Shown in pieces: positions 43,983-64,000 of a stretch of DNA of 64,000 nucleotides. The position numbers and the translations under genes are program-made. The notes below the pieces were generated by a model. That model was not told the DNA's origin. It worked only from the letters and a program-made list of their open reading frames with translations, and did not search any database. Numbering within the stretch: position 1 is the stretch's first letter; the number at the start of each line of letters is the position of its first letter. Source of the stretch: Escherichia phage slur14; sequence record NC_028448.1; one strand, given 5' to 3'.

Positions 43983-44213
43983 TTATTTCTCAACCAATGA
44001 TTGAATATAATCATGCAGGTCTTTAGATGCTTTACCCCACTTATTTTGGTATTCATTTTTAAGATTAGCCCGAGATTGAGCTAATAAAACATCATTAGTT
44101 GGAGGTAAAGATTCTAACCGTTGAATCTGGCGTCCATAAATCATTGCAGCCATCTCGGATTCATAAATCAATCCTTTGAGATGTTCAAATTGATGCCATG
44201 AAATCATTTGCAT
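43983..44213 (-). CDS. Hypothetical protein
   Basis: 76 aa ORF. Confidence 0.45.
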   Translation of the reverse strand: MQMISWHQFEHLKGLIYESEMAAMIYGRQIQRLESLPPTNDVLLAQSRANLKNEYQNKWGKASKDLHDYIQSLVEK

Positions 44214-44503
44214 TTATCCTCTTTTAGCTCTTGACGATAATAACATATCATAGTTTTTTGGTCATGTACATATCGTTTTACATCATTAAGCCAAATACGA
44301 AATTCCTGGGAATCTTCAAATGGCATACCGACCCAAGCTTTACCATCAATAACTTTAACTTGCCAAGATAGTTTAGCTTCATCATATGACTTTATTTGTA
44401 CAGGCCAATTAGGATGAACTGTTTCTTTCTTTACTTCTAGAGGCTTTGTCGAACAACCAACTAGAAGACCAATAGATAATATTACTGCTGATAGTTTAAT
44501 CAT
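44204..44503 (-). CDS. Outer-membrane spanin (o-spanin) lipoprotein
   Basis: 99 aa; signal peptide with lipobox LVGC (MIKLSAVILSIGLLVGCSTK); overlaps upstream i-spanin gene by 4 nt. Confidence 0.55.
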   Translation of the reverse strand: MIKLSAVILSIGLLVGCSTKPLEVKKETVHPNWPVQIKSYDEAKLSWQVKVIDGKAWVGMPFEDSQEFRIWLNDVKRYVHDQKTMICYYRQELKEDKCK

Positions 44504-44853
44504 TTAGAAAGGTCCTGGATGTCTTCTGCGAACTTGTTGAAGGAGTTGTTGATTTGTTTTTCAACCAATCCTGGCTTATGAGCCACCACATCCGCCTTCT
44601 TTGCGTCTTTGCGCAGTTTTTCATTTTCACGCTCAATAGCAGCAATTGCCTCACGATTTTTATTATTCATCGCATCAATATAATTATACTGAATTCGCAA
44701 ATTGTTTAATGCTAAAGCGTTTTCATTGGCCGTTTTTGTAATTTCTACAACAGACGTTTCTAATCTTTCAATTTTATTTTTTAAAATTAAAGAAGTTCCG
44801 CCCAATGCAATTACAATTAATAGCAAACCTGTTGTCGTATTACTTAATTGCAT
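44500..44853 (-). CDS. Inner-membrane spanin (i-spanin)
   Basis: 117 aa; N-terminal TM segment TTGLLLIVIALGGTSLIL then predicted coiled-coil periplasmic domain. Confidence 0.55.
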   Translation of the reverse strand: MQLSNTTTGLLLIVIALGGTSLILKNKIERLETSVVEITKTANENALALNNLRIQYNYIDAMNNKNREAIAAIERENEKLRKDAKKADVVAHKPGLVEKQINNSFNKFAEDIQDLSK

Positions 44854-45347
44854 AAAGTTTTAATAACCTCTATAATATCGTCTTGAGAAAGACCGTTAAT
44901 TAAAATATGATGTTCCGCCGGAGATTTAGAAATTTTAAAGCATGCCGCAACATCTTCTGCCATATCTGATGCACTACGATTTGGATTACTAATCCCAAGG
45001 CGGTGTTTTCCCGTTAAAGGATTAACGATGATATAGCATTTACAGTTGTTAACATGAACATTAGGTTGAGTCTGATTAATGAACACATCACAATCATATT
45101 TCGCAAGCTGATTTTCTAAAAAGACTTTCATCTCCTCAACCGCATCAGGAAGCATATCACGGGCTTGCTCAAGACGACGATTTCGATATTCTTTAATGGT
45201 CGTTTTCCGCTTGACTTGCTTAGCTAAATCTTTCTTAAGATCGGTGATATATCCAACTCGACGATTTCCTTTGAATACAGAAATCCCATCTGTAGTATCA
45301 CCGTATGCTTCAACGACCATTTCAGTAGTAATAAGTTGTAAATCCAT
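44844..45347 (-). CDS. alc: Alc (host transcription shut-off) protein
   Basis: 167-168 aa; N-terminus MDLQLITTEMVVEAYG; driven by the 54-bp early promoter cassette. Confidence 0.8.
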   Translation of the reverse strand: MDLQLITTEMVVEAYGDTTDGISVFKGNRRVGYITDLKKDLAKQVKRKTTIKEYRNRRLEQARDMLPDAVEEMKVFLENQLAKYDCDVFINQTQPNVHVNNCKCYIIVNPLTGKHRLGISNPNRSASDMAEDVAACFKISKSPAEHHILINGLSQDDIIEVIKTLCN

Positions 45348-45354
45348 CATAAAG

Positions 45355-45408
45355 TCCTCATGTTATGTCAGTAAGACTACTATAACACAACACGAGGGAC
45401 TTGTAAAC
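45355..45408 (-). promoter_or_regulatory. Conserved early promoter cassette, copy 2 (upstream of alc)
   Basis: 54 nt identical to 31079-31132; -35 TTTACA, 17-nt spacer, -10 TATAGT, leader with SD gagga. Confidence 0.65.
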
Positions 45409-45411
45409 AGC

Positions 45412-46999
<1,588 letters not shown>

Positions 47000-47026
47000 A
47001 ATAAAATGGGCCTTGCGGCCCACTCC

Positions 47027-48196
47027 TTAAAAATATTTTTTAAAACTCATCATAACTTTATCATCAACATCATTATCAATCTGTGCTACAAGGTAAGATG
47101 ACAGTTCTACTTCTTGCGGCGCGGATTGAACATTATCAGAATTAAGGTATTCACGAATCCAAGGATATGGATGTTTAACCGGAGCATCGGTAATTGGGCA
47201 TGGAAGACCGCACTGTTTCATACGAGATACAGTTAAGTAATCAATAAAGCTCCACATGCTATTTGTATTTAATCCAGGAACATCACCATCTTTAAATAAA
47301 TGAACTGCCCAATCTTTTTCTTGGCGGTTAACTTCCATGAAAATATCAACTGCTTCTTGTTCACACTCTTGAGCAATTTTAACCCATTCATCGCCATCAG
47401 TGCCAAGTTGAAGTTGACGAATAATATATTGAGTGCCTTTAAGGTGAAGCTGCTCATCACGTGCAATGAACTTCATAATCTTGGCATTACCTTCCATGAT
47501 TTCCATATTCTTGTGGAAGTTAAAGGTACATGCGAAAGATACATAAAAACGAATAGCTTCTAAGGCATTAATAACGTGCAAACAGAGGTAAAGAGATTTC
47601 ATTAGCTCTCGTTTGGCGTATTCAACGACTTTACCAAGTTCATCTTTGCGCCAACCTTCAGACAAAATTCCTTCGTATTCTTCTTTAGCGTTTTCCCATT
47701 CACGGGTTTTAACCAAGACATCATCGTAATATCGCCCAATGGACTCAGCACGTTTCATAATAGCTTCATCTAATACAATCTCATCAAACACCTTCGATGG
47801 ATCAGTATAAAGATTTCGCATGATATGTGTATATGAACGGCTGTGAATAGTTTCACTAAAAGTCCACGTAGCAACCCATGTATCAAGGCTTGGGTCTGAA
47901 ATTAATGACATAAGTACAGCAGATGGCGCGCGACCCTGAATGCTATCCAAAAGTGATTGATACTTCAGGTTATTAGTAAAAATATTCTGTTGATACTGAG
48001 GAAGTTTATTAAATTGTGCAGCATCCATCATCAAGTTTACTTCTTCAGGACGCCAGAAAAATGATAATTGCTTTTCAGTCAAATCTTCAAAAACTTTATG
48101 GCGTTGAATATCATAACGCGCAATACCAAGACCTGAACCGAAGAACATAGGTTCTTTTAAAACATCAACTGGATTTGTATTAAAAACTGTGCTCAT
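47027..48196 (-). CDS. nrdB: Ribonucleotide reductase small subunit, uninterrupted
   Basis: 389 aa continuous ORF; di-iron ligand motifs; no intron. Confidence 0.9.
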   Translation of the reverse strand: MSTVFNTNPVDVLKEPMFFGSGLGIARYDIQRHKVFEDLTEKQLSFFWRPEEVNLMMDAAQFNKLPQYQQNIFTNNLKYQSLLDSIQGRAPSAVLMSLISDPSLDTWVATWTFSETIHSRSYTHIMRNLYTDPSKVFDEIVLDEAIMKRAESIGRYYDDVLVKTREWENAKEEYEGILSEGWRKDELGKVVEYAKRELMKSLYLCLHVINALEAIRFYVSFACTFNFHKNMEIMEGNAKIMKFIARDEQLHLKGTQYIIRQLQLGTDGDEWVKIAQECEQEAVDIFMEVNRQEKDWAVHLFKDGDVPGLNTNSMWSFIDYLTVSRMKQCGLPCPITDAPVKHPYPWIREYLNSDNVQSAPQEVELSSYLVAQIDNDVDDKVMMSFKKYF

Positions 48197-48247
48197 AAAT
48201 TTTCCGCTTAGTTAATAGTTGGTGACTCGTCCATGAGTCAAATTATA

Positions 48248-50512
48248 TCATAATTTACAGGATGAACAATCTTCAGCTTTAGGAGTTTCTATTTCATAAT
48301 CATCAGTACCAGAACCATCGCGGGTATTATGATAATAGAAATTTTTTCCGCCAAAATACCAAAAATACAAAAGGTCATCAATCATTATTGACATTGGAAC
48401 CTTGCCTTTAGGGAAGATTTGGGGGTCATAGTATGTATTCGCCGAAGCTGATTGACAAACCCATTTCAGCATAATAGCTACCTGCGTAAGATAAGGTTTA
48501 TTACCTTTCTTAGCTAATTTCCATGTATAGTCGTAAAGGTCTATGTTATGCTCAATATTGGGCACGACTTGATTAAAGGAGCCCTCTTTTGATTCTTTAA
48601 CAGAGACTGGTCCACGTGGAGGCTCGATACCGTTTGTACTGTTAGAAACTTGGGAAGATGACTCACATGGCATAAGTGCTGATAATGTGCTATTACGGAT
48701 GCCAAAGAGCTTAAGGTCTTCCCGCAGCGACGACCAGTCACAAACGTATTTTGGAGCTGCGATTTGGTCAATCTTTTTATTGTACCAGTCGATAGGTAAT
48801 TCGCCTCGAGACCAACGAGTGTCTGAATAATATTCGCAAGGTCCTTTTTCTTTGGCGAGCTTAATGGATGCTTTAATGAGTCCATACTGTAATCTCTCAA
48901 ATAGTTCATGTGTTAAATCGTTAGCATCTTCATAAGAAGCAAAGTTACTTGCCAGCCAAGCTGCATAGTTAGTAACACCTACACCAAGGTTTCGACGCTT
49001 TTTAGCTTTTTCTGCTTCAGGAACTGGATATCCTTGGTAATCCAAAAGATTATCAAGAGCACGAACTTGAACTTCTGCCAATTCATTAATTTTATCTTGG
49101 TCTTGCCAGTCAAAATTATCCAGTACGAATGCAGAGAGAGTACACAATCCAATTTCAGCATCAGGACTATTCACATCATTTGTTGGAATAGCAATTTCAC
49201 AGCACAAGTTACTCTGACGAATAGGTGCCTTTTCACGAATAAACGGAGTATAGTTATTCGTATTATCAATGAACTGCACATAAATCCTTGCTGTTCCTGA
49301 ACGTTCAGTCATGAGCAATTCAAATAGTTCACGGGCTTTAATACGCTTTTTACGAATATTAGGGTCTTTTTCTGCTGCTTCGTATAATTCACGGAAACGG
49401 TCTTGGTCTTTAAAATAAGAATAATAAAGCTCGCCACCCATTTCATGCGGACTGAACAAAGTAATGTAATCGTTCTTTCCGAATCGTTCCATCATCAAAT
49501 CATTCAGCTGAACACCATAATCCATATGACGAATGCGGTTTTCTTCTACGCCTTTGTTATTTTTCAAAACGAGAAGATTTTCAACTTCCAAATGCCAAAT
49601 AGGATAATAAGCAGTAGCAGCGCCGCCACGAATTCCACCCTGTGAACATGATTTAACTGCAGTCTGAAAATGTTTCCAAAAAGGAATAACACCAGTATGG
49701 CGTACTTCACCCATGCCAATCTTAGAACCTTCAGCACGAATCATACCTACGTTAATTCCAATTCCAGCGCGTTTAGAAATATATTCAACAATTGAAGCAG
49801 AAGCTTTATTAATTGACTTCAATGAATCACCAGCTTCAATAACAACGCATGAACTAAACTGTCGAGTCGGAGTACGGCAACCAGCCATAATAGGAGTTGG
49901 CAATGAAATCTGTCGAGTAGATACTGCTTCATAAAAACGAATAACATGTTTTAATCTATCAACAGGTTCATCTTGATGCAATGCCATTCCAATAGTCATA
50001 AATGCAAACTGTGGAGTTTCATAAATTTGACCAGTGGTTTTATCTTTAACTAGATATTTTTCTTTTAATTGCATCGCCCCGGAATAAGTAAATTCCATAT
50101 CCCGCTCGTGCTTAATTTTTGATTCTAAAAATGTAATTTCTTCTGCTGAATATTTTGACAATAATTCAGGGTCGTATTTACCTTCATTTACACAGTAAGA
50201 AATATGGTCAATAAATGAACGTGGTTCATACTGTCCATAAACATGCTTACGAAGAGCAAACATTAAACAACGTGCAGCTACATATTGATAATCAGGCTCT
50301 TCAACCGAAATAGAATTCGCAGCAGCCTTAATGACAATAGTCTGAATATCATTAGTTGTCATTCCATCACGGAGATAAGATTTAATATTTTCATATAATT
50401 CATAAGGATCTACTGATGTTCCTTCAGCTGCCCAAGATAAAACTTTAATAATTTTTTGTGGGTCAAAGCTCTGAGAAACACCACTACTTTTGATAACATT
50501 AATTAATTGCAT
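48248..50512 (-). CDS. nrdA: Ribonucleotide reductase large subunit
   Basis: 754 aa; ATP-cone N-terminus; active-site region NLCCEI. Confidence 0.9.
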   Translation of the reverse strand: MQLINVIKSSGVSQSFDPQKIIKVLSWAAEGTSVDPYELYENIKSYLRDGMTTNDIQTIVIKAAANSISVEEPDYQYVAARCLMFALRKHVYGQYEPRSFIDHISYCVNEGKYDPELLSKYSAEEITFLESKIKHERDMEFTYSGAMQLKEKYLVKDKTTGQIYETPQFAFMTIGMALHQDEPVDRLKHVIRFYEAVSTRQISLPTPIMAGCRTPTRQFSSCVVIEAGDSLKSINKASASIVEYISKRAGIGINVGMIRAEGSKIGMGEVRHTGVIPFWKHFQTAVKSCSQGGIRGGAATAYYPIWHLEVENLLVLKNNKGVEENRIRHMDYGVQLNDLMMERFGKNDYITLFSPHEMGGELYYSYFKDQDRFRELYEAAEKDPNIRKKRIKARELFELLMTERSGTARIYVQFIDNTNNYTPFIREKAPIRQSNLCCEIAIPTNDVNSPDAEIGLCTLSAFVLDNFDWQDQDKINELAEVQVRALDNLLDYQGYPVPEAEKAKKRRNLGVGVTNYAAWLASNFASYEDANDLTHELFERLQYGLIKASIKLAKEKGPCEYYSDTRWSRGELPIDWYNKKIDQIAAPKYVCDWSSLREDLKLFGIRNSTLSALMPCESSSQVSNSTNGIEPPRGPVSVKESKEGSFNQVVPNIEHNIDLYDYTWKLAKKGNKPYLTQVAIMLKWVCQSASANTYYDPQIFPKGKVPMSIMIDDLLYFWYFGGKNFYYHNTRDGSGTDDYEIETPKAEDCSSCKL

Positions 50513-50829
50513 AAGTCCTCAACTTGAAAATCGTCTTTAAACAATCGGTTAACTATATGAGCTATTATATCACCATGACACGGCTTTGGTTTACATGTGC
50601 ATCCTAGCCTCATTCCACGTAAAGGCTCTAAATGTGCTTTAGTTATTTCTCCGGATTTAATTCGACGTATAAAATCTTTTTTGAATAATTCAATGGCAGC
50701 CTCCCGGCTGCCAGCATCTTTACCGACGTAATTTCCCCAAAATGTACCGCGGTGAATATTAACATCAAAGTCGGATTTGTATTTATTCACTACCCGACAT
50801 AGACGGCCAGCGCGGTGATGATTCGGCAT
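50503..50829 (-). CDS. Hypothetical Cys/His-motif protein
   Basis: 108 aa; motif [14 protein letters not shown]. Confidence 0.5.
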
Positions 50830-51046
50830 ATTGTTTTTCCGTTAATACAGTAATATCGTAGTAACAGTCAGAAGAAGTTTTAACTGTGGAAATTTTATTG
50901 TCAAAATATTCACGAGTCATTTTATGAGTATAGTATTTTTTACCATAAATGATAATAGGCTGTTCTGGTCCTGGAACTTCTAACTCGCTTGGGTTAGGAA
51001 GTGTAAAAAGAACAACGCCAGAAGTATCTTTAAATCGTAAAATCAT
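50783..51046 (-). CDS. Hypothetical protein
   Basis: 87 aa ORF; start overlaps td stop. Confidence 0.45.
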
Positions 51047-51903
51047 ATTGCCATTTTCCCTTTAATTGCTGGATGCGATTCATAATTTTCAAGGATAAAA
51101 TCTTTCGGTTTCATGTATTCAGTTAACCAGTAAAGCTGTGTTTCGGTGTCACAATTTCCAAACTCTATAGGCCAATCAATTTTAAGTTCACACAGTTCTT
51201 TAGGCTCACGACGTAAAATTTCTTTACATTGCTCAGTATGATTCATATAGATGTGAGTATTACCACCAGAAAATATCAAATCTCCTGGGATAAGATTACA
51301 CATCTTAGCCACAATATGCGTCAAGGCAGCGTACGAGGCAATGTTGAATGGCAATCCCAAGAAAACATCTACACTTCTTTGGTACCATTGTAAATCAAGA
51401 TAACCATTACGCACATTAAACTGATAGAACATATGACAGGGCGGTAATGCCATTTGATTGATTTCAGCTGGATTCCATGCTGAAACGATTTGACGTCGAT
51501 CAGTTGGTAATTTTTTAATACGATCAATAGTTTCAACTAATTGATCCACACCACCGAAATCACGCCATTGTTTACCGTATATAGGACCAAGTTCACCACT
51601 ATGATATCCTAGGTCTTTAGCTTGGTTTTCATAGTTATCGTCCCAAATAGTTTTACCTTGAATAAGACTGCCATGAGTGCGAAGACGTAAATCATTAACA
51701 TTGGTAGAACCGGAAATAAACCATAGAAGCTCAGCAATGCATGCATTCCAGGCGAGCTTTTTAGTTGTTACTGCAGGAAAACCTTTTGTTAAATCCCAAC
51801 GCAATTTAGTACCGAACAAAGCAATTGTTCCTGTGCCTGTTCGGTCATCGGTTTCATAGCCATTTTCAAAAATGTCTTTAATTAAATCTTGGTATTGTTT
51901 CAT
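51043..51903 (-). CDS. td: Thymidylate synthase, uninterrupted
   Basis: 286 aa continuous [19 protein letters not shown]...; catalytic PPCH motif; no intron. Confidence 0.9.
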
Positions 51904-51948
51904 TTAGTACCTTATATAAATTATAATACATTTTATGAAGCTAAATAA

Positions 51949-53145
<1,197 letters not shown>

Positions 53146-53156
53146 ATTATCTCCTA

Positions 53157-53489
53157 TTAAAAAGGATCAGGAACATATCCGCTAGCTTTAATCATTTTAA
53201 TTAACGTTAACATTCCTTTGTTAACTGCTCGTGAGATTTCATCAAAAACTTCATCACTAAAAAGTTCTAACACGCCCTTCTGAACTTTTAATTTACAGCC
53301 AACAATTTCGTCATCGCCTATAGTAAATTCATTACCACCAATTCCACCGAAAAACTTAATTACACCAGTTAACTGTCTTCCACGAGAATATGGGTCGTGT
53401 GATAAAGTAATATGAGTCACCCCGGGTACAGTTTTAAATTGGCAGCGAATATTTACTTGTGAAATTCCAGTTACATGAATGTCAGACAT
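53157..53489 (-). CDS. Hypothetical protein
   Basis: 110 aa ORF. Confidence 0.5.
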   Translation of the reverse strand: MSDIHVTGISQVNIRCQFKTVPGVTHITLSHDPYSRGRQLTGVIKFFGGIGGNEFTIGDDEIVGCKLKVQKGVLELFSDEVFDEISRAVNKGMLTLIKMIKASGYVPDPF

Positions 53490-53499
53490 AATATTTTCC

Positions 53500-53742
53500 T
53501 CAAATAGACTTTTTCACAATTTTCCAATCAGCTTTAAACTGATCGACGTCAGAGTGATAAATCCAAAATCCTGCGCTTTCTCCGTCTTCATAAAGAGGAC
53601 ATCCATCGCATTCATCTTCCCACCCCATATCGCGTAAAAGGTGTTCAGCTTTTTCAACAAGCTCAGAATCTTTACCGATGATATTAAAATACCATTTACC
53701 TCTAACTTCTGAATCTTTGATGCTCTGGCGTTGTAATCTCAT
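53500..53742 (-). CDS. Hypothetical protein
   Basis: 80 aa ORF; RBS aaggag. Confidence 0.5.
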   Translation of the reverse strand: MRLQRQSIKDSEVRGKWYFNIIGKDSELVEKAEHLLRDMGWEDECDGCPLYEDGESAGFWIYHSDVDQFKADWKIVKKSI

Positions 53743-53752
53743 TTTATTCTCC

Positions 53753-53821
53753 TTAGCAAGCTTTAATCAAAAGATATAAACAGACCAACATAACTGCTGC
53801 CATAATATAAGGTGCGAACAT
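53753..53821 (-). CDS. Possible 22-aa hydrophobic micro-protein
   Basis: Hand translation MFAPYIMAAVMLVCLYLLIKAC; RBS ggagaaaag 5 nt upstream; below ORF-track cutoff. Confidence 0.3.
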   Translation of the reverse strand: MFAPYIMAAVMLVCLYLLIKAC

Positions 53822-53849
53822 TTTCTTTTCTCCATTAGTTTTGATAGGG

Positions 53850-53883
53850 TAATAGTATCACACTACTACCCTTCTGTAAACTA
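53850..53883 (-). promoter_or_regulatory. Candidate early promoter (TTTACA-17-TACTAT)
   Basis: Minus strand gtttacagaagggtagtagtgtgatactattacc upstream of the micro-ORF and ORF 53500-53742. Confidence 0.4.
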
Positions 53884-54243
53884 CTTTTTGAAAGTTTTTC
53901 GCAAAAGTTCAATGATTTCATCTACATTGTTTTCGTCAACAATGCAGTGAATTTTTGTTACGCCAGAAACCTTGTCTTCTATTTCATCTTCAGAAGTCGG
54001 TTCTTTATACTCACGAAAACAATGAAATTCATCTTCGCAGACGTTGAAGTAAAAATGCTTTCCATTGGCGCATTCTACGTGTTTTACTACTTTAAATTCA
54101 TCAGCAAAGAAAACTTCTTTAACTTCAAACCATCCGCCATTTTCTTGAATAGCTTTAACTATTAATGAATTAGAACGCGGGCGATAATTAATAAATGTAT
54201 CAATAAGTCTTGGAACAAGTTCGTACTTTTTATCAATATACAT
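53881..54243 (-). CDS. Hypothetical protein
   Basis: 120 aa ORF. Confidence 0.5.
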   Translation of the reverse strand: MYIDKKYELVPRLIDTFINYRPRSNSLIVKAIQENGGWFEVKEVFFADEFKVVKHVECANGKHFYFNVCEDEFHCFREYKEPTSEDEIEDKVSGVTKIHCIVDENNVDEIIELLRKTFKK

Positions 54244-54287
54244 TATGTTTTCCTCATTTTAATAGGGGCTTGATAGCCCCTCGATAA

Positions 54288-54539
54288 TTACTGTTCAATC
54301 AATCCCATGTAAAATTCTGCATCTTCAGCATCCATACCATCACAGTATTCATTAGCCATAAATCGTTCAAGAACTTCTAAAGGACCTTCAATAACAATAG
54401 AAAAATTGCAATAATTGGGATCATCATGAATACTTGTGATACTAAGTTCAGGATAACGATTACGAATAATTTCTTCAATATATTCAAAATCAACGATGTC
54501 AATATCAACTTTAGCCATATTGTTTTCCTCTTTAATCAT
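54288..54539 (-). CDS. Hypothetical acidic protein
   Basis: 83 aa ORF; preceded by stem-loop AGGGGCT-TGAT-AGCCCCT (54272-54289). Confidence 0.5.
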
Positions 54540-54609
54540 CAGCAGTATTGCCGATAGTTGTATAGTACCATAAAGCTTTATGCTTGTAAACCGTTTTGTG
54601 AAAAAATTT

Positions 54610-54641
54610 TTGAAATAAAAAAGGGGACCTCTAGGGTCCCC
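54610..54641 (-). terminator. Rho-independent terminator downstream of gene 32
   Basis: Minus strand GGGGACC-CTAGA-GGTCCCC hairpin followed by ttttttatttc. Confidence 0.75.
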
Positions 54642-54663
54642 AATTAATTAGTAATATAATCTA

Positions 54664-55572
54664 TTAAAGGTCATTCAAAAGGTCATCCAGGTCCGTGTCA
54701 TCAGCACTAGATGAACTGCCAGAGCTTGAGCTCATAAAATCATCTTCAGTTTTTGTATTGAAGTCATCAACATTGAATGCATCCAAATCATCAGCAACTT
54801 TATCAGCTTTCTTAGCAGCAGTTGCTGCGGCACCACCCATAGCAGCAGTTCCCATAACTTGACTGAACTTAGTGCTCAGTTCTTCAAACGATTTGAATTT
54901 ATCTTTAGAAGTCATTTCAGAAAGGTCAACCATTTGTTCGAACAGTTCTTTTTGGAAAGATTCATCATCAATGTTTGGAATCGCAGATTGATTCAGGAAT
55001 TTAGATTCGTCGTAGTTACTAAAACCAGAAACTTGTTTAACTTTCAGTACAAAGTTAGCACCTTCCCACGGACAAGTTACATCAACCGGAGTTTCACCCA
55101 TTTCAACATCAACTGCAATCATTGCATTGATTTTATCCCAGATTTTCTTACCGAAACGGTATTTAAATACTTTACCTTCGTTTTCTGGAGCAGCCGGGTC
55201 TTTTACTACAAGAATGTTAGCCCAGTAAGAAGTTTTACGTTTAACAAGGCTGTACTCTTTATTGTCAGTGTTGTACAAATCATTTTTACTGATGTATTGA
55301 CATACTGGACAAGAATCGTAATCACCGTGGGTAGATGAACAGTTTTCAATATACCATTTACCATTTTTCTTGAAACCGTGATTTACAAGAATTGCGAATG
55401 GTGCTTGTTCATCATTTTTAGACGGAAGAAAACGAATTACTGCTTGACCGTTACCCGCATTGTCGAGTTTCAGTTTCCACTCGCCTTTATCTTCAGAAGA
55501 AAAACCACCTTTATTTCCAGCCAGTTTAGCCATTTGTGCAGCGAGTTCAGCAGTAGATTTACGTTTAAACAT
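54664..55572 (-). CDS. 32: Single-stranded DNA-binding protein gp32
   Basis: 302 aa; N-terminus [17 protein letters not shown], zinc ligands, acidic C-terminus ...[12 protein letters not shown]. Confidence 0.95.
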
Positions 55573-55640
55573 TTTTATTTCCTTTTTAATTTAATTAACA
55601 GTTGGTGCTATGACGATGTATGACCTCATAGCTGGTCAGT
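55573..55640 (-). promoter_or_regulatory. Gene 32 translational operator: 5' pseudoknot plus unstructured A/U-rich leader
   Basis: Minus strand tgaccagctatgaggtcatacatcgtcatagc (stem 1 TGACC/GGTCA, stem 2 TATGA/TCATA) then aattaaattaaaaaggaaataaaa before ATG. Confidence 0.65.
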
Positions 55641-55655
55641 GAGATAATTATAATC

Positions 55656-55663
55656 TATTTATA
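55656..55663 (-). promoter_or_regulatory. Late promoter motif TATAAATA upstream of gene 32 leader
   Basis: Plus strand tatttata; minus TATAAATA ~85 nt upstream of gene 32 ATG. Confidence 0.45.
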
Positions 55664-55671
55664 ATAAGCAA

Positions 55672-56325
55672 TTAATACTTGCAAGATTTCACAGTTTCAA
55701 TAAAAACATTTTTAGCTTTCTGTGAATCAATATTTAAAATTTTTCTATAAGCCTTTAACTTTATAGAATAATTATTCCAGACTAAATTATCAGTCTGTTC
55801 ATCATGTTTATCAATTATATTTAAAAACGAATCAAGCAAGATAAACGTTTCAAACGAAATTATATTCGACTGAAGCAGTTTAAAAATATAACTTGATTGA
55901 ACCTTTGGATTATATTCAAAGATTTCTTTAAAAGCAGAAACTTCAACTTTTTTACTAAAATAATAAATGTTGCGAATATCTTCTTCAAACTTAAATTTAA
56001 TTTGCTTTAAGCGTCCGATATATTCACGATAAAACACAAGTGCATCAGCGTCAGAGATGTCACCAATCCAAGCATCTTGGTTAGCAACAAGATTGCTTAT
56101 AAAGATTAAAGCAAGTTCCTTTAATTTATATTTTTCTGATAACTTCTGGAAAAAATACTTATCCCTTCGCTTTTGATAAGCGGCATCAGACACCCGCATG
56201 CACCAATTATACTTAATTACATCATACTTTCCATTCATATGTTGTTTTATCATTAAGTATAATTTATAAACTGATTTACCATCAATATATCTTTCACCAC
56301 CAGCAGGCATGCGGAGTTTAATCAT
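55672..56325 (-). CDS. 59: gp59 loader of the gp41 helicase
   Basis: 217 aa ORF; synteny next to gene 32. Confidence 0.85.
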   Translation of the reverse strand: MIKLRMPAGGERYIDGKSVYKLYLMIKQHMNGKYDVIKYNWCMRVSDAAYQKRRDKYFFQKLSEKYKLKELALIFISNLVANQDAWIGDISDADALVFYREYIGRLKQIKFKFEEDIRNIYYFSKKVEVSAFKEIFEYNPKVQSSYIFKLLQSNIISFETFILLDSFLNIIDKHDEQTDNLVWNNYSIKLKAYRKILNIDSQKAKNVFIETVKSCKY

Positions 56326-56660
56326 AATAGAAAATCTAATGTATTAGTTTTTTCACAACGAACAACAGAAGGACGTAAAAGATTTTCGTCAATAGCTTCT
56401 GACTGAATTTTTTCAATTATACCCGAAGGAATAAATTTAGCAAATTGAGTTTCAGGAATAGAATTTTCTTCCAAGAATGCTGTTGTAGCTTCAAGATAAC
56501 TCATTCCAAACTCTTCTACCATTTTTTCAATAATAAATCCATTTTCTTGGCGGTCAAGAAGCTTTGCAATTTCATCCTTTTCTTTCTTAATTGAGAGTTC
56601 TTTTTCTGAAAGACCGGTCTCATCGACCGGACGAATATCATTTAGAGAAAACTGTGTCAT
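56322..56660 (-). CDS. 33: gp33 late-transcription co-activator
   Basis: 112 aa from MTQFSL...; overlaps gene 59 start. Confidence 0.8.
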   Translation of the reverse strand: MTQFSLNDIRPVDETGLSEKELSIKKEKDEIAKLLDRQENGFIIEKMVEEFGMSYLEATTAFLEENSIPETQFAKFIPSGIIEKIQSEAIDENLLRPSVVRCEKTNTLDFLL

Positions 56661-56907
56661 AAAGTTCAACTACCTCTTCAGTTTCAGCTTCAAACACATC
56701 ACGGTTATCTTTATGATACAAAGCTAATAGACGATTAAACATCTTACCATCAACGCCAAGTTCATCTTTGGCACGAATTCGAATATCTTTAATCAATTCA
56801 TTATAACCAGAAATTTTCAGTTTATGATCAGATGCTTCTTTAATAAATTTAGCCAAGTCTTCGCCGTGGATAGCTTCATCAAATTCAACCATTTCTTTTT
56901 TAGCCAT
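56638..56907 (-). CDS. dsbA: DsbA double-stranded DNA-binding protein
   Basis: 89 aa ORF; synteny. Confidence 0.75.
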   Translation of the reverse strand: MAKKEMVEFDEAIHGEDLAKFIKEASDHKLKISGYNELIKDIRIRAKDELGVDGKMFNRLLALYHKDNRDVFEAETEEVVELYDTVFSK

Positions 56908-56915
56908 TATTCACC

Positions 56916-57833
56916 TCAAAATTCATTAATGCTATTAGTTAATTTAGAAAGACCCGCTTTTACAAAATATGAATAAATTTTGCCACGCGGTGGTAATTTA
57001 TATGAATTATAGTAATTCACAATGTTTGAAGCAATATTATCAGGAATATAATCAAAATCAATTAGAACTAAATTTTCTTTATAACGATTATATTCAGATT
57101 CAGTGAGAAGCACCTTAGCTTGCTCACGGTCATTAGCAATAGCTTCAACAATAGAGGTTTTCATTGAAGGAGTTCGTTCACCTTCAACTCTAGTAAACCA
57201 AAAGTCAGATCGTACTTTAACTGAAGCAACGTTATCCTTTTTGTCGCCTTTAAGGATTTTAGTCATACAGTCAATTTCAGCAGAACCGCTTTTAATTTTA
57301 ACCCATTTCTTATGCATCGGTGACCATTGCTTAACATTTGGGTATTTGTGAAGCTGTGTAAAGTCACCATCCGATGAAATGATTAAAATCTTGTGTCCTT
57401 CTAAAGAGAACTTTTTAACAAGAACAGCAATGTGGTCATCTGCTTCATACTTATCAATATCCATAACAATGTATGGCATATAAGCTTTCAATTCATCTAT
57501 AACTTTATGGCTGGATTCAAAATAACCTTCCCAGTCCCAAGTAGATTCTTCTCGTGCTTTTCCACGGTTTTTCTTGTAATAGTAAGCAAAATCACGACGC
57601 CAGTATCCAGATTTCGCGTTATCAATACACAGTACAATTTTAGTGTATCCAAGCGTTTTTGCTTTTTTAACATTAAACTTAATTGAGTTCAATATCAAAT
57701 GACGAACCATTGATAAATTAATTTTTTCTTTATCTGGGAAGTTTACCAAAGCAGTTGAAAGCGCAATTTGACTAAAGTCAATTAAGCAGATTCCTTCTTT
57801 GTAATCTTCATCCAGCATCATTTCTAAATCCAT
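56916..57833 (-). CDS. rnh: RNase H (5'-3' exonuclease / flap endonuclease)
   Basis: 305 aa from ATG at 57833 (track ORF begins at in-frame TTG 57848); acidic active-site residues. Confidence 0.85.
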   Translation of the reverse strand: MDLEMMLDEDYKEGICLIDFSQIALSTALVNFPDKEKINLSMVRHLILNSIKFNVKKAKTLGYTKIVLCIDNAKSGYWRRDFAYYYKKNRGKAREESTWDWEGYFESSHKVIDELKAYMPYIVMDIDKYEADDHIAVLVKKFSLEGHKILIISSDGDFTQLHKYPNVKQWSPMHKKWVKIKSGSAEIDCMTKILKGDKKDNVASVKVRSDFWFTRVEGERTPSMKTSIVEAIANDREQAKVLLTESEYNRYKENLVLIDFDYIPDNIASNIVNYYNSYKLPPRGKIYSYFVKAGLSKLTNSINEF

Positions 57834-57895
57834 ATGAACCTCGTTCAATTAGTGAGATTTCTATTATATACCATCCAAATCTTAAAGTAAACAAG

Positions 57896-57903
57896 TATAA
57901 ATA
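57896..57903 (+). promoter_or_regulatory. Late promoter motif TATAAATA upstream of gene 34
   Basis: Exact TATAAATA 35 nt upstream of gene 34 ATG; RBS aggag. Confidence 0.55.
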
Positions 57904-57937
57904 CTTATTATTGAAAACACAATAGGAGCCCGGGAGA

Positions 57938-60900
57938 ATGGCCGAGATTAAAAGAAAGTTCAGAGCAGAAGATGGTCTGGACGCAGGTGGCGATAAAATA
58001 ATCAACGTAGCTTTAGCTGATCGTACCGTAGGAACTGACGGTGTTAACGTTGATTACTTAATTCAAGAAAACACAGTTCAACAATACGATCCAACTCGTG
58101 GATATTTAAAAGATTTTGTAATCATTTATGATAACCGCTTTTGGGCTGCTATAAATGATATTCCAAAACCGGCAGGAGCTTTTAATAGCGGACGCTGGAG
58201 AGCATTACGTACCGATGCTAACTGGATTACAGTCTCATCTGGTTCATATCAATTAAAATCCGGTGAAGCTATTTCGGTTAACACTGCAGCTGGTAATGAT
58301 ATTACATTTACTTTACCATCTACCCCAATTGACGGTGATACTATCGTTCTCCAAGATATTGGAGGAAAACCTGGAGTTAACCAAGTTTTAATTGTAGCTC
58401 CAGTGCAAAGTATTGTAAACTTTAGAGGTGAACAGGTACGTTCAGTACTAATGACTCATCCAAAGTCACAGCTAGTTTTAATTTTTAGTAATCGTCTGTG
58501 GCAAATGTATGTAGCTGATTATAGTAGAGAAGCTGTAGTTGTAACACCAGCGAATACTTATCAAGCGCAATCTAATGATTTTATCGTGCGTAGATTTACT
58601 TCTGCTGCACCAATTAATGTTAAACTTCCAAGATTTGCTAATCATGGCGATATTATTAATTTCGTCGATTTAGATAAACTGAATCCACTTTATCATACAA
58701 TTGTTACTACATACGATGAAACGACTTCAGTACAAGAAGTTGGAACTCATTCCATTGAAGGCCGTACATCGATTGACGGTTTCTTGATGTTTGATGATAA
58801 TGAGAAATTGTGGAGATTGTTTGACGGTGACAGTAAAGCGCGTTTACGCATTATAACGACTAATTCTAATATTCGTCCAAATGAAGAAGTCATGGTATTT
58901 GGTGCGAATAACGGAACAACTCAGACAATTGAACTTCAGCTTCCAACTAATATTTCTGTTGGTGATACTGTTAAAATTTCCATGAATTACATGAGAAAAG
59001 GACAAACAGTTAAAATCAAAGCTGCCGGTGAAGATAAAATTGCTTCTTCAGTTCAATTGCTGCAATTCCCAAAACGCTCAGAATATCTGCCTGAGGCTGA
59101 ATGGGTAACAGTTCAAGAATTAGTTTTTAATGGTGAAACTAATTATGTTCCAGTTTTACAACTTGCTTATATAGAAGATTCTGATGGAAAATACTGGGTT
59201 GTGCAACAAAATGTTCCAACTGTAGAAAGAGTTGATTCTTTAAATGATTCTACTAGAGCAAGATTAGGCGTAATTGCTTTAGCTACACAAGCTCAAGCTA
59301 ACGTCGATTTAGAAAATTCTCCACAAAAAGAATTAGCAATTACTCCAGAAACATTAGCTAACCGTACTGCTACAGAAACTCGTAGAGGTATCGCAAGAAT
59401 AGCAACTACTGCTCAAGTGAATCAGAACACCACATTCTCTTTTGCAGATGACCTTATCATTACTCCTAAAAAGCTGAATGAAAGAACTGCTACAGAAACT
59501 CGCAGAGGTGTTGCTGAAATTGCTACGCAGCAAGAAACTAATACAGGAACCGATGATACTACAATCATCACTCCTAAAAAGCTTCAAGCTCGTCAAGGTT
59601 CTGAATCATTATCTGGTATTGTAACTTTTGTATCTACTGCAGGTGCTACTCCAGCTTCTAGCCGTGAATTAAATGGTACAAATGTTTATAATAAAAACAC
59701 TAATAATTTAGTTGTTTCACCTAAAGCTTTGGATCAGTATAAAGCTACGCCTACTCAACAGGGTGCAGTAATTTTAGCAGTTGAAAGTGAAGTAATTGCT
59801 GGACAAAGTCAGCAAGGATGGGCAAATGCTGTTGTAACGCCAGAAACGTTACATAAAAAGACATCAACTGATGGAAGAATTGGTTTAATTGAAATTGCTA
59901 CGCAAAGTGAAGTTAATACAGGAACTGATTATACTCGTGCAGTCACTCCTAAAACTTTAAATGACCGTAGAGCAACTGAAAGTTTAAGTGGTATAGCTGA
60001 AATTGCTACACAAGTTGAATTCGACGCAGGCGTCGACGATACTCGTATCTCTACACCATTAAAAATTAAAACCAGATTTAATAGTACTGATCGTACTTCT
60101 GTTGTTGCTCTATCTGGATTAGTTGAATCAGGAACTCTCTGGGACCATTATACACTTAATATTCTTGAAGCAAATGAGACACAGCGCGGTACACTTCGTG
60201 TAGCTACACAAGTTGAAGCTGCTGCAGGAACATTAGATAATGTTTTAATAACTCCTAAAAAGCTTTTAGGTACTAAATCTACTGAAGCACAGGAAGGTGT
60301 TATTAAAGTTGCAACCCAGTCTGAAACTGTGACTGGAACGTCAGCGAACACTGCTGTATCTCCAAAAAATTTAAAATGGATTGTGCAGAGTGAACCTACT
60401 TGGGCAGCTACTACTGCGATAAGAGGTTTTGTTAAAACTTCATCTGGTTCAATTACATTCGTTGGTAATGATACAGTCGGTTCTACACAAGATTTAGAAC
60501 TGTATGAGAAAAATAGCTATGCAGTATCACCATATGAATTAAACCGTGTATTAGCAAATTATTTGCCGTTAAAAGCAAAAGCTGCTGATACAAATTTATT
60601 GGATGGTCTAGATTCATCTCAGTTCATTCGTAGGGATATTGCACAGACGGTTAATGGTTCACTAACCTTAACCCAACAAACGAATCTGAGTGCCCCTCTT
60701 GTATCATCTAGTACTGCTACGTTTGGTGGTTCAGTTTCGGCAAATAGTACATTAACTATTTCTAATACTGGAACGGCAACTCGTCTGATTTTTGAGAAAG
60801 GACCTCAGACTGGAACTAACCCAGCACAGACGATGACTATCAGAGTATGGGGAAATCAGTTTGGTGGCGGATCAGATACAACACGTTCTACTGTATTTGA

Positions 60901-61807
60901 AGTTGGTGATGAAACGTCTAATCATTTTTATTCTCAACGTAATAAAGATGGGAATATAGCGTTTAGCATTAATGGTACTGTAATGCCAATAAACATTAAT
61001 GCTTCCGGTTTGATGAATGTGAATGGTGTTGCAACATTCGGTCGTTCAGTTACAGCCAATGGTGAATTCATTAGCAAGTCTGCAAATGCTTTCAGAGCAA
61101 TAAATGGTGATTATGGATTCTTTATCAGGAATGATGGCGGTAGCACATATTTTATGCTTACTGCATCTGGTGATCAGACTGGCGGATTTAATGGATTACG
61201 TCCATTATCAATTAATAATGCATCTGGCCAAGTAACGATTGGTGAAAGCTTAATCATTGCCAAAGGTGCTACTATAAATTCAGGTGGTTTGACTGTTAAC
61301 TCGAGAATTCGTTCTCAGGGTACTAAAACATCTGATTTATACACCCGTGCACCAACATCTGATACTGTAGGATTCTGGTCAATTGATATTAACGATTCAG
61401 CCACTTATAACCAGTTTCCGGGTTATTTTAAAATGGTTGAAAAAACTAATGAAGTGACTGGGCTTCCATACTTAGAACGTGGAGAAGAAGTTAAATCTCC
61501 TGGTACACTGACTCAGTTTGGTAACACACTTGATTCGCTTTACCAAGATTGGATTACTTATCCAACGACGCCAGAAGCGCGTACCACTCGCTGGACACGT
61601 ACATGGCAGAAAACCAAAAACTCTTGGTCAAGTTTTGTTCAGGTATTTGACGGAGGTAACCCTCCTCAACCGTCTGATATCGGTGCTTTACCATCTGATA
61701 ATGCTACAATGGGAAATCTTACTATTCGTGATTTCTTACGAATTGGTAATGTTCGCATTATTCCTGACCCAGTGAATAAAACTGTTAAATTTGAATGGGT
61801 TGAATAA
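57938..61807 (+). CDS. 34: Long tail fibre proximal subunit gp34
   Basis: 1289 aa; internal repeated TPKKL/ATQ motifs; length as T4 gp34. Confidence 0.9.
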   Translation: MAEIKRKFRAEDGLDAGGDKIINVALADRTVGTDGVNVDYLIQENTVQQYDPTRGYLKDFVIIYDNRFWAAINDIPKPAGAFNSGRWRALRTDANWITVSSGSYQLKSGEAISVNTAAGNDITFTLPSTPIDGDTIVLQDIGGKPGVNQVLIVAPVQSIVNFRGEQVRSVLMTHPKSQLVLIFSNRLWQMYVADYSREAVVVTPANTYQAQSNDFIVRRFTSAAPINVKLPRFANHGDIINFVDLDKLNPLYHTIVTTYDETTSVQEVGTHSIEGRTSIDGFLMFDDNEKLWRLFDGDSKARLRIITTNSNIRPNEEVMVFGANNGTTQTIELQLPTNISVGDTVKISMNYMRKGQTVKIKAAGEDKIASSVQLLQFPKRSEYLPEAEWVTVQELVFNGETNYVPVLQLAYIEDSDGKYWVVQQNVPTVERVDSLNDSTRARLGVIALATQAQANVDLENSPQKELAITPETLANRTATETRRGIARIATTAQVNQNTTFSFADDLIITPKKLNERTATETRRGVAEIATQQETNTGTDDTTIITPKKLQARQGSESLSGIVTFVSTAGATPASSRELNGTNVYNKNTNNLVVSPKALDQYKATPTQQGAVILAVESEVIAGQSQQGWANAVVTPETLHKKTSTDGRIGLIEIATQSEVNTGTDYTRAVTPKTLNDRRATESLSGIAEIATQVEFDAGVDDTRISTPLKIKTRFNSTDRTSVVALSGLVESGTLWDHYTLNILEANETQRGTLRVATQVEAAAGTLDNVLITPKKLLGTKSTEAQEGVIKVATQSETVTGTSANTAVSPKNLKWIVQSEPTWAATTAIRGFVKTSSGSITFVGNDTVGSTQDLELYEKNSYAVSPYELNRVLANYLPLKAKAADTNLLDGLDSSQFIRRDIAQTVNGSLTLTQQTNLSAPLVSSSTATFGGSVSANSTLTISNTGTATRLIFEKGPQTGTNPAQTMTIRVWGNQFGGGSDTTRSTVFEVGDETSNHFYSQRNKDGNIAFSINGTVMPININASGLMNVNGVATFGRSVTANGEFISKSANAFRAINGDYGFFIRNDGGSTYFMLTASGDQTGGFNGLRPLSINNASGQVTIGESLIIAKGATINSGGLTVNSRIRSQGTKTSDLYTRAPTSDTVGFWSIDINDSATYNQFPGYFKMVEKTNEVTGLPYLERGEEVKSPGTLTQFGNTLDSLYQDWITYPTTPEARTTRWTRTWQKTKNSWSSFVQVFDGGNPPQPSDIGALPSDNATMGNLTIRDFLRIGNVRIIPDPVNKTVKFEWVE

Positions 61808-61815
61808 GAGGTATT

Positions 61816-62934
61816 ATGGAAAAATTTATGGCAGAGTTTGGACAAGGATATGTCCAAACGCCATTTTTATCGGAAAGCAATTCAGTAAGATATAAAATAA
61901 GTATAGCGGGTTCTTGCCCGCTTTCTACTGCAGAAGGACCATACGTTAAATTTCAGGATAATCCTGTTGGAAGTCAAACATTTAGCGCAGGACTTCATTT
62001 AAGAGTTTTTGACCCTTCTACAGGAGCATTAGTTGATAGTAAGTCATATGCTTTTTCGACTTCAAATGATACTACATCAGCTGCTTTTGTTAGTTTCATG
62101 AATTCTTTTTCAAACAACAGACTTGTTGCTATATTAACCAGTGGAAAGGTTAATTTTCCTCCTGAGGTAGTATCTTGGCTAAGAACCGCTGGAACGTCTG
62201 CTTTTCCATCTGACTCTGTACTGTCAAGATTCGACGTATCATATGCTGCTTTTTATACTTCTTCTAAAAGAGCTATTGCATTAGAGCATGTTAAACTGAG
62301 TAATAGAAAAAGCACAGATGATTATCAAACTATTTTAGATGTTGTATTTGACAGTTTAGAAGACGTCGGAGCTACCGGCTTTCCAAGAAGAACGTATGAA
62401 AGCGTTGAGCAATTTATGTCAGCGGTTGGTGGAACTAATAACGAAATTGCGCGTCTACCAACTTCGGCTGCAATAAGTAAACTCTCTGATTATAATTTAA
62501 TTCCTGGTGATGTTCTTTATCTTAAAACACAGCTATACGCCGATGCTGATTTACTTGCTCTTGGAACTACAAATATATCTATCCGTTTTTATAATGCATC
62601 AAATGGATATATTTCCTCGACACAAGCTGAATTTACTGGGCAAGCTGGGTCATGGGAATTAAAGGAAGATTATGTAGTTGTTCCAGAAAACGCAGTAGGA
62701 TTTACGATATATGCACAGAGAACTGCTAAAGCTGGCCAAGGTGGCATGAGAAATTTAAGCTTTTCTGAAGTATCAAGAAATGGCGGCATTTCAAAACCTG
62801 CTGAATTTGGCGTCAATGGTATTCGTGTTAATTATATCTGCGAATCTGCTTCACCTCCGGATATAATGGTACTTCCTACACAAGCATCGTCTAAAACTGG
62901 TAAAGTGTTTGGGCAAGAATTTAGAGAAGTATAA
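61816..62934 (+). CDS. 35: Long tail fibre hinge connector gp35
   Basis: 372 aa ORF; synteny. Confidence 0.85.
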   Translation: MEKFMAEFGQGYVQTPFLSESNSVRYKISIAGSCPLSTAEGPYVKFQDNPVGSQTFSAGLHLRVFDPSTGALVDSKSYAFSTSNDTTSAAFVSFMNSFSNNRLVAILTSGKVNFPPEVVSWLRTAGTSAFPSDSVLSRFDVSYAAFYTSSKRAIALEHVKLSNRKSTDDYQTILDVVFDSLEDVGATGFPRRTYESVEQFMSAVGGTNNEIARLPTSAAISKLSDYNLIPGDVLYLKTQLYADADLLALGTTNISIRFYNASNGYISSTQAEFTGQAGSWELKEDYVVVPENAVGFTIYAQRTAKAGQGGMRNLSFSEVSRNGGISKPAEFGVNGIRVNYICESASPPDIMVLPTQASSKTGKVFGQEFREV

Positions 62935-62939
62935 ATTGA

Positions 62940-62966
62940 GGGAGCCTTCGGGTTCCCTTTTTCTTT
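62940..62966 (+). terminator. Terminator-like hairpin after gene 35
   Basis: GGGAGCC-TTCG-GGTTCCC followed by tttttcttt. Confidence 0.55.
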
Positions 62967-62973
62967 ATAAATA
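62966..62973 (+). promoter_or_regulatory. Late promoter motif TATAAATA upstream of gene 36
   Basis: Exact TATAAATA 24 nt before gene 36 ATG. Confidence 0.5.
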
Positions 62974-62996
62974 CTATTAAAATAAAGGGGCATACA

Positions 62997-63659
62997 ATGG
63001 CTGATTTAAAAGTAGGTTCAACAACCGGAGGCTCTGTCATTTGGCATCAAGGAAATTTTCCATTGAATCCAGCCGGTGACGATGTACTCTATAAATCATT
63101 TAAAATATATTCAGAATATAATAAACCACAAGCTGCTGATAACGATTTCGTTTCTAAAGCTAATGGTGGTACTTACGCTGCGACTGTTCGATTTAATGGA
63201 GGCGTACATGTTCCTACTATAGGTAGTAATCAACAGTGCGGTGTTTATCCAGGTAACGGTGATGCAGCTACTTTTGCTATGGCAAATATTGACATCGTTT
63301 CGTGGAATGGTATTGGTTTTAAATCATCACAAGGTTCAGCAGACCGAACTGTTGTAATTAATGCACGTAATGGTGATATTAGTACAAAAGGCATTGTGAC
63401 AGCAGTAGGTCAAATAAGAAGTAATGCAGTTTCTCCTGTATCAGCAAATGACCTTACTAGAAAGGACTATGTTGATGGAGCAATAAATACTGTTACAGCA
63501 AATGCGAACTCTAGAGTGTTGCGTTCTGGTGACACTATGACAGGTAATTTAACGGCGCCAAACTTTTTCTCGCAGAATCCCGCATCTCAACCTTCACATG
63601 TTCCACGATTTGACCAAATCGTAATTAAGGATTCTGTTCAAGATTTCGGCTATTATTAA
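62997..63659 (+). CDS. 36: Long tail fibre distal connector gp36
   Basis: 220 aa ORF; synteny. Confidence 0.85.
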
Positions 63660-63667
63660 GAGGACTT

Positions 63668-64000
63668 ATGGCTACTTTAAAACAAATACAATTTAAAAGA
63701 AGCAAAACCGCAGGTGCACGTCCTGCTGCTTCAGTATTAGCCGAAGGTGAATTGGCTATAAACTTAAAAGATAGAACAATTTTTACTAAAGATGATTCAG
63801 GAAATATCATTGATTTAGGTATTGCTAAAGGCGGTCAAATTGATGGAAATGTAACTATCAATGGTCTTTTGAGATTAAATGGCGATTATGTACAAACGGG
63901 TGGAATGACTGTAAATGGACCTATTGGTTCTACTGATGGCGTAACAGCAAAAGTTTTCAGATCTACACAGGGTTCATTTTATGCAAGAGCAACAAACGAT
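63668..64000 (+). CDS. 37: Long tail fibre distal subunit gp37, N-terminal 111 codons (3' end beyond window)
   Basis: ATG at 63668 with RBS aagagga; [39 protein letters not shown]; frame open to window end. Confidence 0.8.

Follow-up and report, generated by a model that had tools for sequence, protein, structure and literature searches.

In T4, T2 and RB69, the mechanism of gene 32 autoregulation is established in the literature, and a pseudoknot followed by a UUAA(A) tract in the leader constitutes the autoregulatory site (PMC3014915, PMC535899). Repression needs both the pseudoknot and the UUAAA elements, which are covered by the footprints of gp32 (PMC3014915, PMC535899). The action of gp32 in T4 and RB69 is known from footprinting and in vitro translation, the footprints of the two proteins being different (PMC535899), and autogenous repression in RB69 was shown experimentally (Borjac-Natour et al. 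2004, PMC535899). T4 gp32 protects the T4 RNA from +3 to -70 (PMC3014915, PMC535899). Chemical probing of the RB69 RNA revealed accessible positions from -1 to -45 (PMC535899), a stretch that, by the numbering used here, begins right after stem 2. For T2, an NMR structure of the pseudoknot with two coaxially stacked A-form helices (PDB 2TPK) is described in the review PMC3014915. Through this autogenous control, a protein of replication and recombination is kept at a level that follows the amount of single-stranded DNA in the infected cell.

The leader analyzed here lies in a 64-kb stretch of DNA (the window), on the minus strand, which is the sense strand of gene 32 as read from the sequence. 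A segment of 161 nt, running from the end of gene 59 through the leader into the beginning of gene 32, is 100% identical to T2, T6 and RB33, and 285 records have at least 99% identity with it. Over 20 kb (window positions 44000-64000), the DNA is 100% identical to the Escherichia phages slur03 and slur08 (Tequatrovirus), with 98.9% for the next best record. An earlier note on this DNA had described the operator as conserved and useful as an internal control for a T-even origin; the identity of the leader to T2, T6 and RB33 bears out the first point, and the match of the last 20 kb to two members of Tequatrovirus the second.

Homology with T4 starts only inside stem 1, at about 55635, because segG sits between genes 59 and 32 in T4; segG is absent from the same interval here (55573-55671, minus strand). 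By its sequence, the leader belongs to the T2/T6 allele rather than to that of T4, and marks the segment as T2/T6-type Tequatrovirus. We consider it highly likely that the element is the gene 32 translational operator of such a phage, formed by an H-type pseudoknot and an A/U-rich tract. The element is already known, a classical, textbook autoregulatory RNA that is present and intact in this genome, and only the comparative picture and a conserved ACUGU box offer mildly new material.

Layout of the leader and neighboring signals

The spacer between genes 59 and 32 has 99 nt and contains the pseudoknot, whose 3' end is 34 nt from the AUG (Table 1). On the minus strand, from 55638 to 55607, the order is UGACC-A-GCUAUGA-GGUCA-UACAUCG-UCAUAGC, preceded by c, corresponding to a compact H-type pseudoknot with a 5-bp stem 1, a loop 1 of 1 nt, a 7-bp stem 2 and a loop 2 of 7 nt. 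The 5' strand of stem 2 is placed between both strands of stem 1, with 0 nt separating it from the stem 1 3' strand. Numbered from the AUG, the pseudoknot spans -66 to -35 and the A/U-rich tract -34 to -1. Since the stem words are inverted repeats, identical words can be read on the plus strand too. Loop 2 varies from 3 to 7 nt among relatives, with 5 nt in T4 and RB69.

The interval 55573-55640, delimited by the earlier note, is appropriate: it opens 2 nt ahead of the pseudoknot and closes at the last base in front of the AUG. The note names no strand; the functional one is the minus strand. Both stems that it proposed (TGACC/GGTCA and TATGA/TCATA) are found there, but the second one is longer, with 7 bp (GCUAUGA/UCAUAGC) instead of 5. 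Its description of an unstructured A/U-rich tract agrees with the composition, the predicted lack of pairing and the UUAA(A) repeats observed. In the last 45 nt of the leader, the words UUAA and UAAA occur three times each, and the Shine-Dalgarno sequence is kept as AAGG(A/U)AA in relatives.

Near-identical Tequatrovirus leaders (the window at 55583-55598, L081, L086, L087 and L090) vary in the number of copies of a 5-nt AUUAA repeat: 2 in the window, T2 and pSe_SNUABM_01, 3 in T4, 4 in JK08 and 5 in Ptacy1496. This number shifts the distance from the pseudoknot to the Shine-Dalgarno sequence in steps of 5 nt.

Table 1. Features of the gene 32 leader and its surroundings (window coordinates).
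Feature	Position	Strand	Basis or remark
Intrinsic-terminator-like hairpin GGGGACC-CUAGA-GGUCCCC	54623..54641	-	22 nt past the gene 32 stop codon
Gene 32 (gp32, 302 aa)	54664..55572	-	ORF; PF08804
Gene 32 AUG	55572-55570	-	sequence
A/U-rich operator tract ACCAACUGUUAAUUAAAUUAAAAAGGAAAUAAAA, 34 nt	55573..55606	-	82% A+U, predicted unpaired
Shine-Dalgarno region AAGGAA	55579..55584	-	sequence reading; gap of 8 nt from GG to AUG
UUAAAAA	55589-55583	-	repeat within A/U-rich tract
UUAAA	55594-55590	-	repeat within A/U-rich tract
UUAA	55598-55595	-	repeat within A/U-rich tract
AACUGUUAA box	55595..55603	-	inside the operator, 3 nt past the pseudoknot
Stem 2 3' strand UCAUAGC	55607..55613	-	sequence, architecture scan, covariation
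Loop 2 UACAUCG, 7 nt	55614..55620	-	sequence
Stem 1 3' strand GGUCA	55621..55625	-	sequence, architecture scan, covariation
Stem 2 5' strand GCUAUGA	55626..55632	-	sequence; partner 55607-55613; stem in nested MFE fold
Loop 1, single A	55633	-	sequence; A invariant in 9 of 9 variants
Stem 1 5' strand UGACC	55634..55638	-	sequence; partner 55621-55625
-10-like TATAAT	55652-55647	-	consensus reading only
Late-promoter-like TATAAATA	55663-55656	-	consensus reading only
MotA-box-like TGCTTA	55670-55665	-	consensus reading only
Gene 59 (helicase loader)	55672..56325	-	PF08993 and PF08994; upstream neighbor

The gene downstream encodes the cognate protein, with a Pfam match to PF08804 of 225.9 bits (E 7e-67). 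It aligns end to end with T4 gp32 (PDB 8GME, E 1e-196), from which it differs by 5 substitutions and 1 inserted residue (about 98% identity), and both the N-terminal MFKRKST... and the acidic C-terminus ...DLDDLLNDL are intact. The differences are N18A, a G inserted after K21, T to N in YIE(T/N)C, and N to S, G to S and V to A in the C-terminal third. The basic KRKST segment is the one needed for cooperativity, the cysteine of YIE(T/N)C belongs to the zinc-binding region, and the full-length alignment also takes in the OB/zinc core. Past the gene, the strong terminator-like hairpin has 7 bp, 6 of them G-C, and is followed by the U run UUUUUUAUUU.

Three promoter-like elements are packed in the 35 nt from the gene 59 stop codon to stem 1 (55647-55670), matched to the consensus sequences of T4 middle and late promoters; these promoter types are outside the coverage of the sigma-70 scan. 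The late-promoter-like TATAAATA is found at the same relative position in RB69 and in the loci L017 and L021. If used, these putative elements would put the 5' ends of transcripts about 2-12 nt before stem 1.

Such starts parallel the RNase E-processed end of T4 at -71, 4 nt before the T4 stem 1 at -67 (PMC3014915), and they bring in another possible function for the element, mainly as a 5'-terminal stabiliser or RNase E processing determinant of the unusually long-lived gene 32 mRNA, with repression being secondary. Decay that depends on the 5' end would be slowed by a compact fold located there, and the promoter-like elements of the window, RB69, L017 and L021 would all start transcripts a few nt before stem 1. 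In the literature, however, repression requires the pseudoknot together with the UUAAA elements and the gp32 footprints cover both (PMC535899), and we regard stabilisation as an improbable main role. It is compatible with the operator and is better viewed as a possible second role of the same RNA.

A role at the DNA or transcriptional level, as a terminator or attenuator after gene 59 or as a plus-strand promoter, is hardly credible. One weak sigma-70-like match does exist on the plus strand (55620-55648, 9/12), but the region has no more promoter-like matches than chance would give (4 found, 5.9 expected), neither stem is followed by a U run, and the site was not called as terminator-like. 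Moreover, the covariation described below keeps RNA pairing, including G-U pairs, which are specific to the minus-strand transcript. The terminator and plus-strand promoter readings were rejected due to the missing U run and to the matches at or below chance.

Pairing, covariation and folding of the two stems

The pairing pattern is no proof by itself. A scan of both strands of the 64 kb for 5 + 7 Watson-Crick pairs, with a loop 1 of 1-2 nt and a loop 2 of 3-9 nt, gave exactly 1 match, the leader pseudoknot. This is not beyond chance at the scale of the window, because 150 dinucleotide-preserving shuffles contain a mean of 0.59 such pseudoknots per 64-kb window, and the analytic expectation is 0.51. 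At least one arrangement of this kind was present in 58 of the 150 shuffled windows, as would suit functionless inverted repeats arising by chance in AT-rich phage DNA, but for one strand of the 99-nt spacer, where the match is located, the expectation falls to about 4e-4.

Gene 32 leaders were gathered by protein homology in IMG/VR, from annotated phage genomes and with the beginning of the coding sequence as an anchor. Nine distinct pseudoknot variants from 5 genera (Tequatrovirus, Mosigvirus, Marfavirus, Winklervirus and Jiaodavirus) composed the covariation set and are listed in Table 2. The automatic MAFFT alignment was replaced, because indels in loop 2 left the 3' strand of stem 1 out of register, and we used constructs of equal length, made of the stems plus the final 2 nt of loop 2.

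Table 2. Stem sequences of gene 32 pseudoknot variants (5' strand/3' strand).
Leader	Stem 1	Stem 2
Window (T2/T6 type)	UGACC/GGUCA	GCUAUGA/UCAUAGC
T4	UGCC/GGUA	as in the window
RB69	AUACC/GGUAU	GCUACGA/UCGUAGC
Klebsiella phage Marfa and a relative	GUCC/GGAC	GGUGCAA/UUGCAUC or UUGCACC
Klebsiella phage KPV15	GUCC/GGAC	GUUGCAA/UUGCAAC
Serratia phage CHI14 and a relative	AUGCC/GGCAU	GGUGUGA or GAUGUGA/UCACAUC
L021	UACC/GGUA	GAUGCAA/UUGCAUC

Among the 9 variants, 95.4% of the cells are paired, against 75.7 +/- 3.0 in column shuffles, none of the 500 reaching the observed value. Changes on both sides were found at 7 of the 12 pairs (27 cells), and sliding the 3' partners by 1-3 columns reduced pairing to 26-54%. 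Stem 2 is paired in 100% of the cells, with 4 of its 7 pairs changed on both sides. In stem 1, 3 of 5 pairs changed on both sides, and the four inner pairs hold in 9 of 9 variants and the outermost one in 4. Two inner pairs of this stem covary, from UA to GC at one position and among AU, UA, GC and GU at another. The register of the alignment was chosen from the invariant junction and from complementarity, and for this reason leans towards pairing, which is partly offset by the IMG/VR negative control. With the caveat of a structure-guided register, these data show that both helices are maintained by compensatory substitutions.

For the negative control, IMG/VR was searched with an anchor-only pattern (CCAG.T...RGG ... 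CAACTGT.AA), in which the invariant anchors are fixed and the stem interiors are free. Most matches come from unrelated contigs. Among the matches listed (at least 80), and with equal latitude in the length of loop 2, only 7 can form a stem 1 of at least 4 bp and a stem 2 of 7/7, and all 7 are then followed by a Shine-Dalgarno sequence and ATGTTTAA(A/G)CGTAAA, the start of gene 32. The covariation and this control together show that the pairing of the leader is under selection. With compensatory changes in five genera added to the negative control, chance repeats no longer have any realistic standing as an explanation, and we consider that reading refuted.

Folding of the single sequence gives a less complete picture. 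The nested MFE fold of the 71-nt leader has -11.4 kcal/mol (z = -2.1), with stem 2 formed and the tract (55606-55573) wholly unpaired; the mean unpaired probability of the tract is 0.79 in this context and 0.69 in a 151-nt context. As isolated hairpins, stem 1 has -6.1 and stem 2 -7.0 kcal/mol, and they have no nucleotides in common. A greedy two-level fold (fold, mask, refold, with lonely pairs disallowed) recovered stem 1 in T4, RB69, Marfa and KPV15 but did not add it for the T2-type sequence of the window. In this allele, stem 1 has a competitor in a helix of 3 bp inside the loop of stem 2 (55614-55625, minus strand), where GGU from the stem 1 3' strand can pair with AUC from loop 2. This helix is missing from T4, RB69, Marfa and KPV15.

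One could then argue that the element is a simple hairpin made of the 7 bp of stem 2, not a pseudoknot, and that the stem 1 complementarity is incidental, which would fit both the folds of the window sequence and the outermost stem 1 pair being kept in just 4 of 9 variants. We find this very unlikely: none of the 9 variants lacks any of the four inner pairs of stem 1, two of these pairs covary, the two-level fold does find the stem in the four phages mentioned, and both helices, coaxially stacked, are seen by NMR in T2 (PMC3014915). Structure prediction, which the earlier note had suggested as a check, was thus informative for stem 2, formed in the nested fold, but not for stem 1, which simple folding did not add for this allele, and therefore stems that do not pair in a prediction are an unreliable and misleading refutation. 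Single-sequence thermodynamics is not decisive here, the relevant evidence being evolutionary, along with the published T2 NMR structure.

An Rfam search had been suggested as well and gave no support: no Rfam 15 family reached its gathering threshold over 54500-56500 (scan at E <= 10). The best overlap, with the DUF2815 RNA (55570-55626, minus strand), has 19.1 bits for a gathering value of 41.2 (E 2.3). It is almost wholly based on the ribosome-binding region UUAAAAAGGAAAUAA..AUG and is probably noise.

The ACUGU box and the leaders of other lineages

We surveyed Tevenvirinae-type leaders (the window, L005-L011, L013, L014, L019 and L212-L237) for the box found in the window 3 nt past the pseudoknot. 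All 34 distinct gene 32 leaders have one or more ACUGY boxes in the interval from -62 to -12, usually as AACUGU(U/A)AA. The same word is found in 7 of 63 other long-ORF leaders of the window, and the background expectation is 0.11 per leader. Leaders without the pseudoknot have 2-4 copies of the box. In the Karamvirus CC31, three copies extend into the 3' end of gene 59, each in a codon phase of its own, a pattern in favor of selection on the nucleotides themselves.

The pseudoknot scored positive in 17 of the 34 leaders, or 19 when L085 and L089, cut by the 80-nt extraction, are included. Its compact form is present in Tequatrovirus, Mosigvirus, Marfavirus, Winklervirus and Jiaodavirus. Both the spacer and the pseudoknot are missing from Karamvirus (CC31, L006) and several other lineages, and RB49 was likewise reported to be without a pseudoknot (PMC3014915, PMC535899). 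Tegunavirus (Yersinia phage fHe-Yen9-01; L024 and L025) has a larger pseudoknot-like layout about 90-45 nt upstream of the gene 32 start, consisting of an 8-bp helix (ACAAUGAA/UUCAUUGU) that encloses GGUGUAG, with a complementary CUACAUC 9 nt downstream of the helix.

The survey supports a point left open by the 2010 review, namely that the pseudoknot is widespread but not universal in T4-like phages, whereas the ACUGU-containing box is universal within the sample examined. The AACUGU(U/A)AA box is not discussed in PMC3014915 and PMC535899, which emphasise the UUAAA/UAAA elements; this comparison covers these two papers. As a tentative and rather doubtful suggestion, the box could be a sequence-specific determinant of gene 32 regulation, older and more general than the pseudoknot, with its repeats substituting for the latter as a nucleation or specificity element for gp32 or another factor.

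In marine and environmental T4-like contigs (L029-L080), the region about 100 nt upstream of the gp32 homologue has a sigma-70-like promoter in common (GTTGACACCATCCCC...TGGTGTAATAT). A conserved segment ATTATGAA(A)TA(C/T)GTGGA and several (A)AUACA repeats are also found before the Shine-Dalgarno sequence. Neither the T-even-type pseudoknot nor the ACUGU box is present in these leaders, which may represent a different operator design for the same gene.

Proposed mechanism and comparison with known operators

Everything expected of the operator is present and intact in this genome: position, strand, identity with T2/T6, conservation of the helices, composition and predicted single-strandedness of the tract, and a cognate gp32. 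The pseudoknot would form the 5' end of the gene 32 mRNA or lie close to it, with the ribosome-binding site contained in the tract. When in excess of the available single-stranded DNA, gp32 would bind the pseudoknot as a nucleation site. Cooperative polymerisation of gp32, mediated by its N-terminal domain, would then proceed 3' over the unstructured tract. The coating would cover the Shine-Dalgarno sequence and the AUG, blocking initiation. We infer gp32 binding and repression at this particular leader from its identity with T2/T6 and near identity with T4.

For engineering around genes 59 and 32, the interval 55573-55638 (minus strand) should be left unaltered. Insertions between the two genes, at the site of segG in T4, are tolerated no further than the 5' edge of stem 1.

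The closest described system is the T2/T6 pseudoknot, which has the same sequence over the 161 nt, the same 5-bp stem 1, A in loop 1, 7-bp stem 2 and 7-nt loop 2, and the same gene order 59-32 without segG. No difference was detectable from the genome records, which are what was compared; the genome that carries the element is slur03/slur08 and not T2 itself. The T4 operator shares stem 2 (GCUAUGA/UCAUAGC), the A of loop 1, the ACCAACUGUUAAUUAAAUUAAA...AAGGAAAUAAAAAUG tract and a gp32 with about 98% identity. It differs in stem 1 (UGCC/GGUA, with 4 bp including one G-U), in loop 2 (AAGUG, 5 nt) and in one extra AUUAA repeat in the tract. In addition, the segG ORF of T4 extends at its 3' end into the first strand of stem 1 (PMC535899), while here a promoter-like spacer follows gene 59.

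The RB69 operator (PMC535899) is also of the H-type, with the invariant CCAG...GG junction and, past stem 2, the ACCAACUGU box. Its stem 1 is AUACC/GGUAU, and its stem 2 (GCUACGA/UCGUAGC) contains a compensated change from U-A to C-G. Loop 2 has 5 nt, and the tract is longer, with UAAA and AAUCUAAAUAA repeats in place of UUAAA. A more distant parallel, drawn from the review PMC3014915, is the rpsO (S15) operator of E. coli, where autogenous translational repression also acts through a pseudoknot in the leader mRNA. The sequences are unrelated, and rpsO is devoid of an A/U-rich polymerisation tract. S15 traps the ribosome on the mRNA, whereas gp32 would exclude it by cooperative coating.
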